From: an uncultured Gemmataceae bacterium
GTDB lineage: Bacteria; Planctomycetota; Planctomycetia; Gemmatales; Gemmataceae
Direction of reading: 5' to 3'
DNA: 64,000 nucleotides
Assembly: GCA_963750165.1 (NCBI GenBank)
Contig: CAVVPN010000010.1
Location: 32,001 to 96,000 of the forward strand
The notes beneath the pieces were generated by a model. It had not been told where the DNA came from and did no database searches. It saw nothing but the letters and a program-made list of their open reading frames with translations. Position numbers and translations under genes: made by a program. This document shows, one piece after another, positions 54,697 to 64,000 of the stretch; the first letter of the stretch is position 1, and each line of letters begins with the position of its first letter.

Positions 54697-55356
54697 TTAC
54701 ACCGATTTCGCAGACCGCTTTTTCGCCTTTTTGGCGGCCGGCGCCGCCGTCAGCGCCGCCAGGCAGAAGTCGGCGATGTGCTCCGCCAGGCGCTCGGCGG
54801 TGTAGGTGCGGGCCTCCTCCTCGCCGACGAGCTGCACGATGATGCTGCGGGCGCAGCGGTGGTGGATGCACTGGCCGATGATGCTCAGCACGATCAGGTG
54901 GCGCGCGTCCGACGGCGTGTCCGGTGCCACGAAGTCATCGACGATGCTCAGCAAGAGGTCGAAGTGCGGCCGGGCGAAATCACGGACGAAGGCAGCGCAG
55001 GCGGCCGACGGCTGGCTTAGTTCGCGGCCGACCAGTTGCATGTGCCAGGCCGGCCGGCCGTCGCCGATCAGCCCGGCGGTGAAGTGGCGCACGAACTCGC
55101 GCAGCCGTTCCTCGCGTGGCGTGCCCGGCGGCCAGCTCGGCATGTCCTCGGCGCTGTGGCGGCAGGCGAACGCTTTCTGCACTGTCTCGACGTACAGCCG
55201 CTCCTTGTCGCCGAAGTAGTAGTTGACCGCGGCAATATTGGCGGCGCCCGCGCGCTTGCAGATGTCGCGCACCGTCGCCGCCTCGAAGCCCTTGGCCGCG
55301 AAGATTTCGCCGGCGGCCTGCAGCAGGGCGGCCCTGGTGTCCTCGTTCAGTGTCAT
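54697..55356 (-). CDS. TetR family regulator, CecR/YbiH-like
   Basis: LLQAAGEIFAAKGFEAATVRDICKRAG..AAVNYYFGDKERLY; SIIGQC. Confidence 0.9.
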   Translation of the reverse strand: MTLNEDTRAALLQAAGEIFAAKGFEAATVRDICKRAGAANIAAVNYYFGDKERLYVETVQKAFACRHSAEDMPSWPPGTPREERLREFVRHFTAGLIGDGRPAWHMQLVGRELSQPSAACAAFVRDFARPHFDLLLSIVDDFVAPDTPSDARHLIVLSIIGQCIHHRCARSIIVQLVGEEEARTYTAERLAEHIADFCLAALTAAPAAKKAKKRSAKSV

Positions 55357-55447: not shown

Positions 55448-55500
55448 TCCGAGCCCGAGCGCCAGCGCGGGGCCAACGCTGCCCCGCGCTCGGGCTCGGA
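55448..55500. repeat. Palindromic repeat family C
   Basis: TCCGAGCCCGAGCGCCAGCGCGGGGC...GCCCCGCGCTCGGGCTCGGA. Confidence 0.8.
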
Positions 55501-55529
55501 CCAACCGCGAAAATCATGGCGTTTCCAGA

Positions 55530-56300
55530 TTACCCGGCCGACTTGAGCAGTTGCTTCGCCCGGCTCACCCAACGGCCATCGCGGCGGCGGGCCGGGCCGG
55601 ACGTGAAGTGATAGTCCGCCAACCCCTGCTCCACCACGCGCCGCGCCTCGTCGCGCGCGTCGGTGTCCATCAGGTGTTCGGCCAGCAGACAGCGGTGCTC
55701 CAGGCGCGGCGCCACGCGGGCGAGTTCGCGGCAGTGGACCAGGGCCGCGACCGATTCGCCGGCGTCGTCGCAGACCGTGACGAGCGTGCGGAACGCCTCG
55801 TAGTCGCGCCAGTTGGGCTGCTTGGCGACGAGCTTTTCCAGCAGCGGCATGGCCAGTTCGGGCTGCCCCAAACCGCGTCGCGCCTGCGCCAGCAGGAACA
55901 GTGCCTCGCAGTGCTCCGGCTCGCGCGCGAGCATCGCCTCCAGGTGCGGCGCCGCCTCGGCGCACTCGCCGACCTCGACCAGGCGCTCGCCCAGCTCGAA
56001 GCGGTTGGCGACGGTCGGCGTCTGCTCCGCCCGATAGCGCAGCTCCTGCAGCGACGGCCTGCGGTTGAACAGGATGGTCAGCCAGCCGGGGCGCTGGCTG
56101 TGGCCGCCCTGGAAGTCCTTGACCTTGTGCGTGAAGAAATACGCCCAGGCGCCGAAGGGCTGGAAGATGAGGATCATCCAGAACCACTGCGATTCGACGC
56201 CGCGGCGGTTGGCGTCCACGAGCATCCAAACCGTGAACGCCGCCTGCACCAGGAACAGCGGCGACAGGCCGTAATACAGGTAGGGGTCGTAATAGGGCAT
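55530..56300 (-). CDS. Membrane-anchored tetratricopeptide repeat protein
   Basis: WMLVDA..WFWMILIFQPFGAWAYFF followed by TPR-like helices. Confidence 0.85.
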   Translation of the reverse strand: MPYYDPYLYYGLSPLFLVQAAFTVWMLVDANRRGVESQWFWMILIFQPFGAWAYFFTHKVKDFQGGHSQRPGWLTILFNRRPSLQELRYRAEQTPTVANRFELGERLVEVGECAEAAPHLEAMLAREPEHCEALFLLAQARRGLGQPELAMPLLEKLVAKQPNWRDYEAFRTLVTVCDDAGESVAALVHCRELARVAPRLEHRCLLAEHLMDTDARDEARRVVEQGLADYHFTSGPARRRDGRWVSRAKQLLKSAG

Positions 56301-56449
56301 GACCGCACATGGGTTGAAAGGGCGACTGCTTTCCCCGCAATGGTAGCGGGGCGGGGGGAGATTGCAACCGCAGAAGGGGCGTCCGGTCGCTTTTCCGGTG
56401 CGCTGCCAGCGACGGCAGGTGCAGCGCAACCGCTCCGGAGAACGATCCC

Positions 56450-56563
56450 ATGTCGAGCGAACCCACGGTACTCGAGCGCAACCGGGAACTGGCCATGCGC
56501 ATCAACGCGGAAGCACGGCGGGATCCGCAATCGCCGTCAATCGGAGTCAAGAGAGAGGAGTAG
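56450..56563 (+). pseudogene. Truncated small-gene remnant abutting the end of the tRNA array
   Basis: GGAG SD; MSSEPTVLERNRELAMRINAEARRDPQSP then unrelated sequence; resembles, from recall only, the N-terminus of a longer planctomycete protein family. Confidence 0.5.
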
Positions 56564-56633
56564 TCCCAGGTGGACTCGAACCACCGATCTTCCCCAGGTC
56601 AAGGGGCTGTCCTGGCCGCTGAACGATGGGACT
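56561..56633 (-). tRNA. tRNA-Val(GAC)
   Basis: Cloverleaf; acceptor AGTCCCA/TGGGACT; loop TTGACCT; T-loop TTCGAGT. Confidence 0.82.
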
Positions 56634-56643
56634 CTGTTTTCAG

Positions 56644-56716
56644 TACCCCGACCAGGAGTTGAACCCGGAACGCCTCGTTCGAAGCGAGGTATGATGATCC
56701 GTTTCACCATCGGGGC
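56644..56716 (-). tRNA. tRNA-Arg(TCG)
   Basis: Anticodon arm CCTCG-CTTCGAA-CGAGG; T-loop TTCAACT. Confidence 0.88.
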
Positions 56717-56721
56717 AAGAG

Positions 56722-56807
56722 CGGAAGGCAAGGGATTTGAACCCTCATACCCTGACGGGCGCACTGTTTAGCAAACAGGCCCGGCGAACCGTATCCGGCT
56801 ACCCTCC
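56722..56807 (-). tRNA. tRNA-Ser(GCT)
   Basis: Loop TTGCTAA; long variable arm; G73. Confidence 0.88.
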
Positions 56808-56817
56808 GTTAGCGCAG

Positions 56818-56889
56818 TGGACCCACCGGGAATTGAACCCGGATTTTCAGTCTGCCGAACTGATGTCCTCCCGGTTGGACGATGAGCCC
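56818..56889 (-). tRNA. tRNA-Ala(GGC), C33
   Basis: G3:U70 pair; arm TCAGT-TCGGCAG-ACTGA. Confidence 0.85.
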
Positions 56890-56900
56890 ATTGATTGCAG

Positions 56901-56974
56901 TGGAGACGATGGGAATCGAACCCATCCCAGGTTGCTTGCAAGGCATCCTCGCCGCCCTTGGCACATGCGCCCCC
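56901..56974 (-). tRNA. tRNA-Ala(TGC)
   Basis: G3:U70 pair; loop CTTGCAA; T-loop TTCGATT. Confidence 0.85.
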
Positions 56975-56985
56975 ACAAATGGCAG

Positions 56986-57057
56986 TGATCCCGGATGGAC
57001 TCGAACCATCGTTGCCTGGACGTGGCCCAGGAGTCGTGGCCGCTGGACCACGGGATC
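56986..57057 (-). tRNA. tRNA-Val(CAC), atypical anticodon loop
   Basis: Acceptor GATCCCG/CGGGATC; arm CCTGG-GCCACGT-CCAGG. Confidence 0.75.
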
Positions 57058-57071
57058 ATCACAGCAGTCAG

Positions 57072-57150
57072 TGACCGAGGTGGGATTTGAACCCACAAAC
57101 AGATCACCAGGCTCTCGACCTGGTCGCTTTGCCAGTTTGCGTACTCGGCC
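57072..57150 (-). tRNA. tRNA-Leu(GAG), C33, reduced variable arm
   Basis: Arm CCAGG-TCGAGAG-CCTGG; T-loop TTCAAAT. Confidence 0.82.
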
Positions 57151-57158
57151 GTCAGCAG

Positions 57159-57227
57159 TCGCGGGTCCGGGAGTCGCGCCCGGAGAGCTGGGATTATGAG
57201 CCCCGGCTGGAAACTCTTCCACCCGCC
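57159..57227 (-). tRNA. Atypical initiator-like tRNA-Met(CAT)
   Basis: Loop CTCATAA; G-rich/C-rich anticodon stem; 1:72 mismatch; shrunken D-arm; T-loop CGCGACT. Confidence 0.68.
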
Positions 57228-57229
57228 AG

Positions 57230-57314
57230 TGACCAGGGGGAGACTTGAACTCCCACGCCTGTGATGAGGCACGGCCTTCTGAGGACCGCGTGTCTGCCAT
57301 TCCACCACCTGGCC
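57230..57314 (-). tRNA. tRNA-Leu(CAG)
   Basis: GGTGGAATGGCAGACAC D-arm; loop CTCAGAA; long variable arm. Confidence 0.92.
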
Positions 57315-57327
57315 ATGAACCAATCAG

Positions 57328-57400
57328 TAGCCCGTGCGGGAATCGAACCCGCGTCCTCAGCTTGAGGGGCTGAGATCCTGTGCCGTTAGAAGAACGGGCC
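57328..57400 (-). tRNA. tRNA-Glu(CTC), C33
   Basis: Arm TCAGC-CCCTCAA-GCTGA; T-loop TTCGATT. Confidence 0.87.
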
Positions 57401-57404
57401 GCAG

Positions 57405-57484
57405 TGTGTCGGGCAGGAGTCGAACCTGCAAGGCTAACGCGGACGGGTTACAGCCGTCTGGGCCTGCCAGTGCCCAACCAACAC
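57405..57484 (-). tRNA. tRNA-Tyr(GTA)
   Basis: Arm GACGG-CTGTAAC-CCGTC; variable arm; T-loop TTCGACT. Confidence 0.87.
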
Positions 57485-57494
57485 AGCACTTCAG

Positions 57495-57572
57495 TAGCGC
57501 GGGCGAGGGTCGAACTCGCAGTCGATCACCAAGGTTTGAGCTTGGCCGCTTTGCCAGTTTGCGTACCGCGCC
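57495..57572 (-). tRNA. tRNA-Leu(CAA), reduced variable arm
   Basis: Arm CCAAG-CTCAAAC-CTTGG. Confidence 0.83.
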
Positions 57573-57577
57573 GTCAG

Positions 57578-57650
57578 CGCCCCGACGGGATTTGAACCCG
57601 CGATCTCCACCTTGACAGAGTGGCGAGGACTCCAGCTCCTCTACAGGGAC
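57578..57650 (-). tRNA. tRNA-Asp(GTC)
   Basis: Arm CCACT-CTGTCAA-GGTGG; acceptor 3' strand one G short (possible homopolymer error). Confidence 0.82.
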
Positions 57651-57659
57651 GTATCTCAG

Positions 57660-57733
57660 TAGCGCCGGTGGGAGTCGAACCCACAGCAGTTCTGGTTCTA
57701 AGCCAGAATGGTCGTCCGGTTGCCTACAGCGCC
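57660..57733 (-). tRNA. tRNA-Leu(TAG), short variable loop
   Basis: Arm TCTGG-CTTAGAA-CCAGA; 6-nt variable region. Confidence 0.82.
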
Positions 57734-57748
57734 GTTCGATCACCGAAG

Positions 57749-57822
57749 TGCGCGGGGTGGGAGTCGAACCCACAATCACCTGGGTTTAAGCCAGGCCGCT
57801 CTGCCGATTGGCGTACCCGGGC
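57749..57822 (-). tRNA. tRNA-Leu(TAA), short variable loop
   Basis: Arm CCTGG-CTTAAAC-CCAGG; 5-nt variable region. Confidence 0.83.
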
Positions 57823-57829
57823 AAAACAG

Positions 57830-57901
57830 TTCGGGGAGAAGGGGTCGAACCTTCGTTGCCAGATTCAGAGTCTGGCGGCCTACCAGTTAGCCGATCCCCG
57901 A
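57830..57901 (-). tRNA. tRNA-Gln(CTG)
   Basis: U1:A72; arm CCAGA-CTCTGAA-TCTGG. Confidence 0.9.
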
Positions 57902-57920
57902 ATCTATGTCTCCGCTTCAG

Positions 57921-57993
57921 TAGGGCCGGTGGGACTCGAACCCACGTCTCATCGCTTAAAAGGCGAGCGCTCTGACCGCTGAGCTACGACCCC
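57921..57993 (-). tRNA. tRNA-Lys(TTT)
   Basis: TAGCTCAGCGGTCAGAGC D-arm; loop CTTTTAA; T-loop TTCGAGT. Confidence 0.92.
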
Positions 57994-58035
57994 ATGTGGG
58001 ATGCGTAGCCGACGTTTACCAGGTGCTTGTCGCAT
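57949..58035 (-). CDS. Putative 28-aa ORF inside the tRNA array, reading into tRNA-Lys
   Basis: AGGAG SD 8 nt upstream; MRQAPGKRRLRIPHGVVAQRSERSPFKR*. Confidence 0.4.
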   Translation of the reverse strand: MRQAPGKRRLRIPHGVVAQRSERSPFKR

Positions 58036-58054
58036 GACCGCTGCTCCTGTCGAG

Positions 58055-58125
58055 TAGTCCGGGGTGGAGTTGCACCACCACTGACGACGTATCAGATCGC
58101 CGTGCTCCTGTTACACCACCAGACT
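58055..58125 (-). tRNA. tRNA-Ile(GAT), atypical T-loop
   Basis: Acceptor AGTCTGG/CCGGACT; loop CTGATAC; T-loop TGCAACT. Confidence 0.78.
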
Positions 58126-58144
58126 GTCTGCTCCGGCCCCGTCC

Positions 58145-58180
58145 AACGAAAAAGGCCGGGTGTTTCGTGACACCCGGCCT
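58145..58180 (-). terminator. Intrinsic terminator upstream of the first tRNA (attenuator-like)
   Basis: 11-bp stem AGGCCGGGTGT/ACACCCGGCCT, 6-nt loop, followed by TTTTCGTT on the minus strand. Confidence 0.8.
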
Positions 58181-58209
58181 GAAGCGTTCTCTTCAGTGCG
58201 TTCGCGGGG

Positions 58210-58311
58210 TCACAAGTTGAGACGATCAAGAGCCAGCAGTTTGCGCTGATAGGCCGCGACGGCCTGCAACGCCTGCTGTTCAAGCACCAGACTGATCACG
58301 GAATAACGCAT
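58210..58311 (-). CDS. Putative 33-aa leader peptide of the tRNA operon
   Basis: MRYSVISLVLEQQALQAVAAYQRKLLALDRLNL*, lying between the promoter motif and the terminator. Confidence 0.55.
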   Translation of the reverse strand: MRYSVISLVLEQQALQAVAAYQRKLLALDRLNL

Positions 58312-58366
58312 GGTATTGTCGATCGTCTCAAGAAGGTTAATGAGGTTCAGGATCGCCTCGCACACA

Positions 58367-58394
58367 TAAGACGGCTAACCCTTTCGTTTGGTTC
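58367..58394 (-). promoter_or_regulatory. ECF-sigma-type promoter motif
   Basis: GAACC-N16-CGTCTTA on the minus strand, with an A-rich tract upstream. Confidence 0.6.
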
Positions 58395-58493
58395 GCCGAT
58401 TTTTTCAAATTCTTTCGGTCGTTGCGTCCTACGGAAGATGAGACGCCGACCCCCACCAGTTGGTTCGCTGTGAATCCAAAAATATTTCGCGGC

Positions 58494-59747
58494 TCAGGAC
58501 AACCGATACCTGGGTTGTTGCTCCAGATACCGCCGCACCCGCTCCGTGCGCGTCACCGCCTCCTTCAGGAAGCCAACCGCCAGCCGCAGCCGCTCGTCCG
58601 GCTCGGCGCAGCTGAAGCGCAGGAAACCCTGTCCCGCCGCTCCGAAGCACTCGCCGCCCAGGCACGCCACGCCGAAGCGCTCGTCCGCCGCCTCCAGCAG
58701 GAACATCGCCAGGCCGTGCGACGTGATGCCCTGCCGCCGGCAGATCGCGGACACGTCCGGGAACACGTAAAACGTCCCCGCCGGCATCAACACCTGGACT
58801 TCCGGCACCAGGCGCAGTTCCGCGACCAGCAACTGCACCTTCTTGTGGAAGCGCCGCATCACCTCGTCGCGCTCGGCGGCGTCGTACTGGAGGGCGGCCT
58901 GGCCGGCCAGCTGCACGATCGGCGGCACGCACGACAGGCTCGTGTTAATCATCTTGCCGATGGTCTCGATCAGCCGCGGACTGCTGACCGCGTAGCCGAG
59001 TCGCCAACCGCTCATGCTGTACGACTTGCTGAAGGTATACGCCGCCACCACCTGGTCGAGCATGTCCGGATGCTCCAGCAGCGTGTGGTGCCGGCCCTGC
59101 CAGACCATGTGGCAGTACGGTTCATCGCTGAACACCGCCACGTCCTGGCCGCGCACCAGATCGGCGATGCCACGCAGGTCCTCCGCCGTGGCGACGCCGC
59201 CGGTCGGGTTGTGCGGCGAGTTCAAAAAGATCGCCTTTGGCCGGGCTGCCGTCTTCAGGAAGTCGGCCACGGCGTTCAGGTCCGGGCGGAACTGGTGCGC
59301 CTGCTTCAGTGCCGCGAACACCGGCCGGGCACCGCGGCGCTCGATGTTCGGCACGAACGTCGGGAACTGCGGGCTGAACACCAGCACGCTGTCGCCAGCG
59401 TCCAGCACCGCCTCGCAGAAGAACTGCTCGAACACCTTGGCGCCAGCGCCCACCACGACGTTGGCCGCCGTGATCGGCACGCCGAACTCCTTGCCGTAGT
59501 TCTCCGCAATGGTCTCGCGGAAGCCCGGTAGGCCCAGCGAGGCGCAGTAGTGCGTCTCGCCGGTGTCGATGGCCTGACGGCCGGCTTCGCGGGCGTGTTT
59601 GGTGCTGGGAAAGGGGCTGTCGCCGATCTGCAACTCGACCACATCCTTGCCCTGGGCCTTGAGCCGGCGGGCGACCGCCAGCACGTCGAAGGCGGTCTCG
59701 GCCGAAAGTTCCCGGGCGAAACGACTCAGGCTCACGGGGGTGGTCAT
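58494..59747 (-). CDS. PLP-dependent aminotransferase class I/II
   Basis: LNSPHNPTG, FSDEPY, TFSKSYSMSGWRLGY, GTFYVFPD and FLRFS motifs. Confidence 0.93.
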   Translation of the reverse strand: MTTPVSLSRFARELSAETAFDVLAVARRLKAQGKDVVELQIGDSPFPSTKHAREAGRQAIDTGETHYCASLGLPGFRETIAENYGKEFGVPITAANVVVGAGAKVFEQFFCEAVLDAGDSVLVFSPQFPTFVPNIERRGARPVFAALKQAHQFRPDLNAVADFLKTAARPKAIFLNSPHNPTGGVATAEDLRGIADLVRGQDVAVFSDEPYCHMVWQGRHHTLLEHPDMLDQVVAAYTFSKSYSMSGWRLGYAVSSPRLIETIGKMINTSLSCVPPIVQLAGQAALQYDAAERDEVMRRFHKKVQLLVAELRLVPEVQVLMPAGTFYVFPDVSAICRRQGITSHGLAMFLLEAADERFGVACLGGECFGAAGQGFLRFSCAEPDERLRLAVGFLKEAVTRTERVRRYLEQQPRYRLS

Positions 59748-62655: not shown

Positions 62656-64000
62656 TTATCCCCGGAACAGCTCGTCAATCGCCTCCGCTTCCGTGATCGG
62701 CAGCGGTCGGTTCTCCGGCCCCGGCAAGCGCGTGCCCAGTTCGACGCCGACGCCCTTGTACACCGTGGCGGCGATCTCCGCCGGGCTCACCGGCCGGTCG
62801 CGCGGTTCAGCGCCGGTGCGATCCGACGCGCCGACGACCTGACCACCGCGCACCCGCGCCCCGGCGAACAGCACCGACCAGACGCCCGGCCAGTGGTCGC
62901 GGCCGCCGCGGCCGTTGAGTTGCGGCGTGCGGCCGAACTCGCCCATCGCCACCACCAGCGTGGTGTCGAGCAGGCCGCGCTGCCGCAAATCCTCCAGCAG
63001 CGCCGTGTACGCCATGTCAAACATCGGGCACAGCGTCTCGCGGTAGTCGTTCAGGTTCACACCCAGCGAGCCGCCGTCGGCGTGGCAGTCCCAGGTGATG
63101 TCGTTGAACACCGTGTCGAACATGTTGACCGTCACGAAGCGAACGCCATGCTCGACCAGTCGCCGCGCCAGCAGGCAGGACTGGCCGAAGGTGTTGCGGC
63201 CGTAGCGAGCACGGAGCGTGTCATTTTCGGCGGCGATGTCGAAGGCCCGCCGGGCGTTCTGCGCGAAGATCAGGTTGAATGCCTGATCGTAGGCGTTGTC
63301 CCGGGCGCGGCTGTCCTCGGTGGCGTCGAAGGCGCGCTGGGCGTTGTCGATGGCTTCCAGCAATTCGCGGCGGCTGCGCATTCGGGCCGGGTCGATGCCG
63401 GCGGGAGCGTTGATGTCGGTGATGCGGAAGTCGGCCGCGTTGGGGTCGGCCCGCAGGATGAACGGTTCGTGGCGGGCCCCGAGGTAGCCGGCCCCCTGGC
63501 CGTGGCTGACGCTGACGCCGGTGTTGCCGATCGGACTCGGCAGCACCACATACGGCGGCAGTCCGCCGCGACCGGCGCCGCGCAGGTGCGAGATGGCGGC
63601 GCCATAGTGCGGGTACTCCTGGCCGCCACGGAACAGGTAGCCGGTCTGCATCATTTGATGGCCGGTTTCGTGGATCGGCGCGGCACGGTGGTGGACGCTG
63701 CGCACGATGGCGTAGCGGTCGGCCACGCGGCTCATCAGCGGGAAGTGCTCGCAAATCTGCACACCGGTGACGTTGGTCTGGATGGGCCGGAAGGGACCGC
63801 GGACGTTGTCGGGGGCGTTCGGCTTGAGATCCCAGGTGTCCAGGTGGCTCGGGGCGCCGACCAGGAAGAGGAGGATGCAGTTGATGTCGCTGCGGCTGCC
63901 GCCGGTGGCCCCGGCCTGGGCCAGCGACAGGCCGACGGCGCCGGCGCTGAGCGTGCCCACCCGCAGGAAATCACGGCGGCTCATGCCGTCGCAGAACCGC
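62656..64000 (-). CDS. DUF1501 domain protein, 5' end beyond the window
   Basis: FCDGMSRRDFL, APSHLDTWDLKP, CLLARRLVEHGVRFV, GEFGRTP and GRDHWP motifs. Confidence 0.93.
   Translation of the reverse strand, partial: RFCDGMSRRDFLRVGTLSAGAVGLSLAQAGATGGSRSDINCILLFLVGAPSHLDTWDLKPNAPDNVRGPFRPIQTNVTGVQICEHFPLMSRVADRYAIVRSVHHRAAPIHETGHQMMQTGYLFRGGQEYPHYGAAISHLRGAGRGGLPPYVVLPSPIGNTGVSVSHGQGAGYLGARHEPFILRADPNAADFRITDINAPAGIDPARMRSRRELLEAIDNAQRAFDATEDSRARDNAYDQAFNLIFAQNARRAFDIAAENDTLRARYGRNTFGQSCLLARRLVEHGVRFVTVNMFDTVFNDITWDCHADGGSLGVNLNDYRETLCPMFDMAYTALLEDLRQRGLLDTTLVVAMGEFGRTPQLNGRGGRDHWPGVWSVLFAGARVRGGQVVGASDRTGAEPRDRPVSPAEIAATVYKGVGVELGTRLPGPENRPLPITEAEAIDELFRG

Follow-up and report, generated by a model that had tools for sequence, protein, structure and literature searches.

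A leader-terminator element ahead of planctomycete tRNA arrays, probably a ribosome-dependent transcription attenuator

The window analyzed here, a stretch of 64,000 nucleotides from an uncultured Gemmataceae bacterium (GenBank assembly GCA_963750165.1, contig CAVVPN010000010.1, positions 32,001 to 96,000), carries on its minus strand a tRNA array whose first gene starts at 58125. Ahead of that gene stands a leader with a fixed order of parts, namely a promoter-like motif, a short leader frame, a small hairpin and a terminator. The original prediction for this DNA described the promoter motif, the 33-residue reading frame, the small hairpin, the terminator and an inverted repeat, and all five are located by sequence reading and a terminator scan exactly where it had placed them. 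The features of the locus are listed below in the direction of transcription.

58439..58466, minus strand: upstream second copy of the promoter-like motif, GAACC-N16-CGTCTCA (reading and motif scans)
58367..58394, minus strand: promoter-like motif, GAACC (58394-58390), N16, CGTCTTA (58373-58367) (sequence reading)
58321..58331 and 58217..58227, minus strand: 5' half and 3' half of the 11-bp inverted repeat (exact reverse complement)
58210..58311, minus strand: leader frame, ATG at 58311, 33 codons, TGA at 58212-58210, then C (reading)
58206..58213, minus strand: 5' strand of the putative antiterminator, GUGACCCC, with the UGA stop inside (folding without the terminator 3' arm, covariation)
58179..58196, minus strand: spacer hairpin, CTGAAG 58196-58191 and CTTCAG 58184-58179, nested in the antiterminator (reading, folds)
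58145..58180, minus strand: intrinsic terminator, stem 58180-58170 with 58163-58153, loop 58169-58164, U-rich tail (terminator scan)
56560..58125, minus strand: tRNA array, 16 genes with ARAGORN at default and 18 at a relaxed threshold, 12 amino acids

The second promoter-like copy stands in tandem, 72 nt upstream of the motif at 58394-58367, and with two such motifs the leader might have two starts; for the proximal motif, transcription is predicted to begin about 7 nt past the CGTCTTA box. The terminator stem has 11 pairs, 8 of them G-C, with TTTTTCGTT directly after the stem (58180-58153), and its bases 58175-58167 are common to the antiterminator. The 241-nt leader folds better than its shuffles (z -4.4), and the minimum-energy fold includes the duplex of the 11-bp repeat (-19.8 kcal/mol, z -4.9 vs shuffles). 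The leader peptide uses 13 amino-acid types with 8 Leu residues, lacks Gly, Pro, Thr, Phe, His, Cys and Trp, and has a single Lys codon, AAA.

The array packs 16 tRNA genes into 1.57 kb (56560-58125) in the default ARAGORN run. Rfam finds 14 of its tRNAs at the gathering score together with 3 weaker clan hits (one at 56723-56807), and relaxed ARAGORN fills two tRNA-sized gaps with Ser(gct) at ~56721-56807 and Met(cat) at ~57158-57227. The 18 genes counted in the original prediction are reached only at this relaxed setting, and the Met(cat) call among them comes from relaxed ARAGORN without Rfam support. None of the array tRNAs encodes CCA, and their identity to same-anticodon sequences elsewhere in the genome is at most 0.72, an upper bound since the comparison set was over-called. 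The earlier description of the array as a reserve set is not supported: among the 97 tRNA genes of the assembly (strict ARAGORN; 12 contigs, 93% complete), those for Val-GAC, Leu-UAA and Lys-UUU are found in this array only, so that at this completeness it is not simply a spare set, and we count their confinement to the array, as a need for expression, in favor of the attenuator reading developed below. The tRNA complement of this genome is large and partly unusual, and the 97 calls include 2 tRNA-Sec and several long or odd ones (two given as '???' with 2-base anticodons).

A search with the 375-nt leader by BLAST against 61 related genomes matched the terminator hairpin alone, again in this genome and in 3 relatives, each time beside a tRNA cluster. 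Because the rest of the leader is too diverged for BLAST, a hairpin pattern and then a covariance model were used. The pattern gave 15 matches in 11 of the 252 family genomes, compared with 2 for the same pattern read backwards, and all 15 lie 12-92 nt ahead of the first tRNA of arrays with 4 to 35 genes, some of which end at contig ends. Among the matches listed for species-representative genomes, a tRNA follows within 150 nt in 15 of 141, all planctomycete; these comprise 13 Gemmataceae loci and 2 metagenome-assembled genomes of Pirellulales, both with the full unit. The other 126 of the 141 listed, outside planctomycetes, were rejected as unrelated GC-rich hairpins (eg, in actinobacteria) with no tRNA after them.

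The covariance model R1, built on the 3' part of the unit (final five leader codons, spacer and terminator), reached further, with matches in 61 of 151 sampled genomes of the class, from several families, and a tRNA within 120 nt downstream at 24 of the 27 new loci. The R1 matches L217, L218, L220, L223, L226 and L214 have no tRNAs, look like ordinary terminators and were discarded. Two of them, L218 and L223 (G106, G103), are GC-rich hairpins that match R1 on both strands with no tRNA nearby and are probably ordinary bidirectional terminators; as they show, the false-positive level of R1 is near 33-35 bits.

This genome holds three units in all with the same order of promoter, leader, spacer hairpin, terminator and tRNA, and the relatives with a hairpin match show that order as well. 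The second unit lies on contig 11 and includes a GAACC-N16-CGTCTA of its own, a 29-codon frame running to TGA-C, a spacer hairpin and the same terminator, and precedes a cluster of Lys, Pro, Ser, Cys and His tRNAs. The third (L225; contig 4, 499567-499662, minus strand) was found by R1 and precedes an Asn(gtt)-Gln(ttg) pair; it has a variant stem (GCCAGGCGTCA...) and a short frame of 15 codons that is rich in Asn and Gln. An Rfam search of 55500-59500 at E up to 1 returned the tRNA clan and chance-level matches on the tRNAs only, and the leader is covered by no family. Judged by sequence comparison, the leader-terminator element is a conserved, unannotated RNA family in many planctomycete genomes, and the unit is not a chance arrangement.

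Upstream of homologous arrays, where the original prediction proposed to look for a conserved frame, a terminator and covarying stems, all three are present. Counting back from the aligned UGA, all 52 of 52 loci show at least 25 open codons in the leader frame, whereas the other two frames reach this length in 31 and 24 of the 52; the stop is UGA-C at nearly all loci. With the start taken as the most upstream ATG within 70 codons (two starts, GTG for G078b and the second ATG for G216, were reset after the promoter position had been viewed), the leader is 24-40 amino acids long in 39 of the 52 loci. Peptide sequences are not conserved between array types. We also noticed that in the loci L185-L224, which are not from Gemmataceae, the 3' end of the leader is conserved at the nucleotide level as CTGCGC(T/A)TGTGAC and reads ...Leu-Arg-Leu-stop whatever the content of the array. 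This block may act as an RNA pairing partner, or through the peptide or the context of the stop (UGA then C).

The consensus of extracytoplasmic function (ECF) sigma factors combines a -35 element with AAC, a spacer of 16-17 nt and a -10 element with CGT(C), and on that consensus we take GAACC-N16-CGTCTTA to be a putative ECF-type promoter. A motif of GAACC, 16-19 nt and CGTC lies 176-227 nt ahead of the hairpin in 13 of 17 first-set loci, the remaining ones having a GCTC or CATC variant (three loci) or no motif (one), and a looser form occurs at the matching distance in 32 of 36 further loci. For comparison, a sigma-70-like TTGMM-N16-19-TAnnnT is found within 110 nt of 11 of the 68 first-of-cluster tRNA genes of this genome, and the GAAC...GTC motif before 7 of the 68, that is, at 3 leader arrays, 3 leaderless loci and 1 more. 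What stands of the ECF promoter proposed in the original prediction is a conserved motif that, from these comparisons, is distinct from the sigma-70-like motifs of housekeeping tRNA genes, with the ECF label as a probable reading of its type. The longer form GCGAACC-N15-17-CGTCT has 13 matches in the genome, 4 of them ahead of tRNA clusters, and the loose form has 70 genome-wide, mostly inside likely genes. The bare 10-base GAACC-N16-CGTCT is not enriched genome-wide, with 34 matches compared with 29 and 35 for wrong spacings, and we dropped the short motif as evidence on its own.

Some further tRNA genes of this genome are worth recording with regard to their promoters. The three leaderless loci have GCGAACC-N16-(C/G)GTC directly in front (contig 3 ~2578608, plus strand; contig 11 ~2246439, minus strand; contig 1 ~79606, plus strand) and are an Arg-Gly-Ser-Gly cluster, a Trp-Thr-Arg cluster and a single Glu gene. 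Situated 24 kb downstream of array b and on its strand, the Trp-Thr-Arg block resembles the tails of arrays in relatives and may be a split-off piece of an array. Many stand-alone tRNA genes share a common AT-rich upstream block, with 'cgacgcaaa' about 35 nt ahead and '...actt' at the junction, which fits neither the sigma-70-like nor the GAACC type and may represent a third class, of promoters or of processing signals, or else a repeated unit.

The lack of genome-wide enrichment of the short motif, together with the commonness of open frames in GC-rich DNA, would suit an alternative in which the leader is a coincidence made of a chance open reading frame and the terminator of the upstream aminotransferase gene. 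However, that gene, a class I/II aminotransferase, ends 315 nt upstream of the terminator, the unit stands behind unrelated upstream genes in dozens of genomes, and the match between leader and array has a single-locus P of ~1e-5. The comparative data already contradict chance, and we regard coincidence as extremely improbable.

A close examination of the folds points to a second use of the terminator 5' arm. In folds made without the 3' arm, the stop region (GUGAC and 3-4 further nt) finds its partner in the distal part of the 5' arm and the loop (GG(U/C)GUCAC) at 15 of 15 first-set loci, and the spacer hairpin, which is present at the matching place in the folds of most loci and is not conserved in sequence, is enclosed within this pairing. 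In alignment A1 (17 sequences), 97.9% of the terminator cells are paired and 88.2% of the antiterminator cells, against 22-46% in slid controls, and three antiterminator pairs are changed on both sides. The model-based alignment with 51 distinct rows gives 553 of 557 paired cells for the terminator and 437 of 529 (82.6%) for the antiterminator, against 24.5-45.7% when slid, with compensatory changes in both. At one position the stop region, the 5' arm and the 3' arm covary three ways (columns 20, 66 and 91). The full naked leader favors the terminator in 15 of 16 loci, by ~5-13 kcal/mol in most, and the UGA sits within the antiterminator strand about 30 nt ahead of the stem. The terminator and the stop-region antiterminator would accordingly be the two states of a mutually exclusive switch, and from this geometry we infer that a ribosome at the stop would mask the antiterminator strand.

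This is not the switch of the original prediction, which had made folding depend on the ribosome through the 11-bp inverted repeat. The repeat is exact and strong in the window, as given above, but not conserved: the helix between the 5' untranslated region and the end of the frame has a mean z of -0.1 over 45 loci and falls below -2 in 5 of them. As a conserved switch the repeat was rejected in favor of the pairing between the stop region and the terminator 5' arm and loop, and it is regarded as specific to this locus.

Two other readings of the hairpin can be weighed against these data. It could belong to the tRNA precursor, serving its processing or stability or binding a protein, with the alternative pairing and the frame as by-products; its stem is strongly conserved in sequence and not in structure alone, and several Gemmataceae copies lack a clean U tract. 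Against this, at least 5 T occur in the first 8 nt past the stem at 40 of 51 loci, the stem shows compensatory changes and the three-way covariation with the stop region, and the open frame and the agreement of the leader with its array are left unexplained, which makes this reading very improbable. The second possibility is that the leader is an independent small gene, for a small RNA or a small protein, located upstream of arrays that are transcribed separately or by unregulated read-through. Promoter, frame and terminator do make a complete unit, naked RNA favors the terminator, and the same promoter type stands directly before leaderless tRNA clusters in this genome. However, the gap between terminator and first tRNA measures just 12-40 nt in most loci and contains no promoter motif; the peptide sequence is not conserved, yet its composition tracks the array; and the stop region covaries with the terminator arm. 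We consider an independent gene improbable, if a little less so than a processing element.

The strongest link between leader and array is one of composition. As the original prediction had noted, the window leader contains all 12 amino acids served by the array plus one Asn, which is confirmed with the 18-gene set, and 31 of its 32 non-Met residues are array-served. The caution that this could be chance no longer applies: simulated peptides match the set at the window locus alone with P ~1e-5 to 4e-5, and under both composition models P is <1e-3 at 7 of 14 loci. At 10 of the 14 loci (first set, arrays uncut by contig ends) no amino acid of the array is absent from the leader. The mean Matthews correlation coefficient between leader and array sets is 0.61 for own pairs and 0.07 for foreign pairs, and when nine non-homologous representatives are permuted in all 362,880 ways the true pairing scores highest, likewise with a second choice of representatives.

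Loci that took no part in forming the idea behave in the same way. Of 59 loci processed, 38 were kept (leader of at least 15 amino acids, at least 4 tRNAs, array uncut by a contig end) and grouped into 31 leader clusters, 18 of which are held-out and come from R1 loci in other families. The observed sum lies 8.1 standard deviations above permutations for the 31 clusters, and for the 18 held-out clusters it is 5.29 compared with 1.17 +/- 0.94, a value reached by 0 of 200,000 permutations. On average, 92% of the amino-acid types of an array are present in its own leader. The served residues are not evenly placed: they account for 292 of 335 middle positions, falling to 49 of 70 over the final five codons and to 31 of 42 over codons 2-4 (Fisher P 2e-4), and in a post hoc count leaving out four poor loci the middle share is 206 of 212. 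This placement fits a sensing window that would end where a stalled ribosome would cover the antiterminator. The leader-array match is strong per amino acid and modest per codon.

Taken together, the unit is likely to be a ribosome-dependent transcription attenuator in front of tRNA genes, conserved ahead of tRNA arrays across the class. The claim of the original prediction that leader frame and terminator gate the array by ribosome position survives every comparative test that we ran; regulation by stalling is still to be read as an inference. In the mechanism that we propose, transcription would start from the alternative-sigma-type promoter, and a ribosome would translate the leader close behind the polymerase. 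When decoding is smooth, the ribosome would reach the UGA and cover the GUGAC(A/G)CC strand, leaving the terminator untouched; the terminator would then form and, if efficient, stop transcription before the tRNAs. When the ribosome stalls at a middle codon, five or more codons before the UGA, the antiterminator strand would be free to pair with the terminator 5' arm and loop, no terminator would form and the polymerase would enter the array. With middle codons drawn almost only from array-served amino acids, the putative signal would be slow decoding of the array's own amino acids (through tRNA shortage, damage or poor charging), and the direction of the response would be to make the array on demand. 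We lean, with somewhat less confidence, towards the wider reading of a tRNA-supply homeostat throughout Planctomycetia, in which an alternative-sigma promoter drives a leader that spells the amino acids of its array, and the ribosome gauges tRNA sufficiency there and opens the terminator switch. A single metatranscriptome run, sharing 0.04 of the words, was compared with 56500-58500; its matches are short contigs resembling tRNAs, mostly at 90-95% identity, with no contig covering the leader, and they speak neither for nor against the mechanism.

Several observations weigh against the attenuator reading. At the level of RNA structure, no conserved 1:2 pause or anti-antiterminator hairpin was found in a search of the helix between the 5' untranslated region and the frame end, with other partners covered less than exhaustively; about half of the Gemmataceae copies have no clean U tract immediately past the stem; and alignment A2 was fitted to the terminator, though the antiterminator was not part of the model. 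The start codons chosen by rule are uncertain for long frames. As to composition, G011, G002 and Pir066 are not significant vs simulated peptides, the G002 leader lacks four amino acids of its own array, and some loci match poorly (13 of 26 residues served in G000b, 13 of 33 in Pir066 and 26 of 40 in G216). The loci are related by descent, so the permutation P values overstate independence; however, leaders diverged beyond recognition yet keep the composition of their arrays, which points the same way. Finally, the codon-level agreement is modest. By simple wobble rules the array anticodons can read 295 of 363 codons, compared with 277.8 expected from genome codon usage (z 2.7); in a second count 318 of 510 are readable, compared with 288.7 expected from same-amino-acid codons of other leaders (z 2.9). 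Many leader codons would consequently be read by tRNAs from outside the array.

This weak codon-level match leads to the alternative that we take most seriously, although we think it rather unlikely: the same attenuator hardware may sense general translation capacity, responding to whatever slows or blocks ribosomes (antibiotics, ribosome shortage), with the amino-acid agreement as a secondary tuning. Resistance genes under leader control operate in this manner, and the Anabaena trn operon reacts likewise. The alternative would also be in line with the result that no conserved anti-antiterminator was found, so that untranslated leaders may also read through, and with the induction of long tRNA arrays elsewhere by translational stress, as described in PMC8421152 and PMC10272220. 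A general sensor has no need for a composition that follows each array, yet this is seen in held-out loci too, and it leaves unexplained why unserved residues are pushed to the leader ends.

The surroundings of the array are unremarkable with regard to mobility. Among eight neighboring frames scanned, no mobility gene (integrase, HNH) was found, and mobility of the array was set aside on that count; the scan found the aminotransferase mentioned above, a TetR/CecR-family regulator and a DUF1501 protein. The regulator (54700-55356, minus strand) lies ~1.2 kb past the array end, and the DUF1501 protein (62659-63984, minus strand) is farther upstream; no link of either to the array was seen.

Bacterial tRNA genes are commonly regarded as promoter-controlled, whether by growth rate, by the stringent response or by a repressor such as TrcR. 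If the proposed reading is true, decoding would feed back directly on tRNA synthesis through a leader that tests the downstream tRNAs, leader-peptide attenuation would extend from metabolism to the translation machinery, and these would be the first tRNA genes under decoding-dependent attenuation, possibly in response to phage attack or to toxins that target tRNAs. The reading would further account for long divergent arrays that stay quiet yet available, and the intended tRNA supply of an array could be read from its leader alone. Records of cultured strains carry the element too, which makes the system easily testable; in one titled Zavarzinella formosa DSM 19928, the hairpin (locus L120) is followed by tRNA-Pro, and R1 also matches single-contig Pirellulales genomes. 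A full-text literature search, with most subscription journals outside its coverage, found no description of leader-peptide attenuation of tRNA genes.

The closest known systems are the leader-peptide attenuators of amino-acid operons, among them the multivalent ones of thr, ilvGMEDA and ilvBN and those of trp, his, leu and pheA. The likeness is one of layout, with a short leader frame rich in the relevant codons, a terminator immediately ahead of the genes under control, an antiterminator overlapping the terminator 5' arm that would be masked by a ribosome at the stop and, as in the multivalent cases, one leader that would sense several amino acids. The differences are that the cargo here is tRNAs and not enzymes, that the leader covers as many as 15 or more amino acids with one to few codons each in place of runs of a single residue, that no conserved 1:2 hairpin was found here, and that the promoter is of the alternative-sigma type and the stop codon lies inside the antiterminator strand. 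General descriptions of leader-peptide attenuation are given in PMC1183508 and PMC3082878.

T-box leaders, which precede aminoacyl-tRNA synthetase and amino-acid genes, also choose between terminator and antiterminator in a leader and thereby report tRNA status. They bind one uncharged tRNA directly and need no translation, unlike the present element, where the reading would be done by a ribosome, and Rfam gives no T-box match in 55500-59500 at E up to 1. To our knowledge, the trn operon of Anabaena is the sole long tRNA array with known control. In Anabaena sp. PCC 7120, the repressor TrcR binds direct repeats over the -10 element and the transcript start, according to PMC8421152 and PMC10272220. 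The former also names planctomycetes among the phyla with long tRNA arrays, and the words 'leader', 'attenuat' and 'terminator' are absent from it. Our array resembles L-arrays and Anabaena trn in its long row of tightly packed tRNA genes that have diverged from the housekeeping set, and those arrays are linked to translational stress in the same sources. It differs from Anabaena trn in that control would lie in a translated leader and a terminator switch and not in a promoter repressor, with a promoter motif of another type, and from redundant 'cryptic' L-arrays in that it holds the only genes found for three anticodons.

A last comparison is with the ribosome-stalling attenuators of resistance genes, such as bmrCD of B. 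subtilis (PMC4191407) and ermB (PMC8274638), where a stall in the leader is reported to release downstream expression, so that translation stress is sensed. Those leaders sense drug-bound ribosomes at specific peptide motifs, whereas in the planctomycete element the composition of the leader follows the set of tRNAs encoded downstream.

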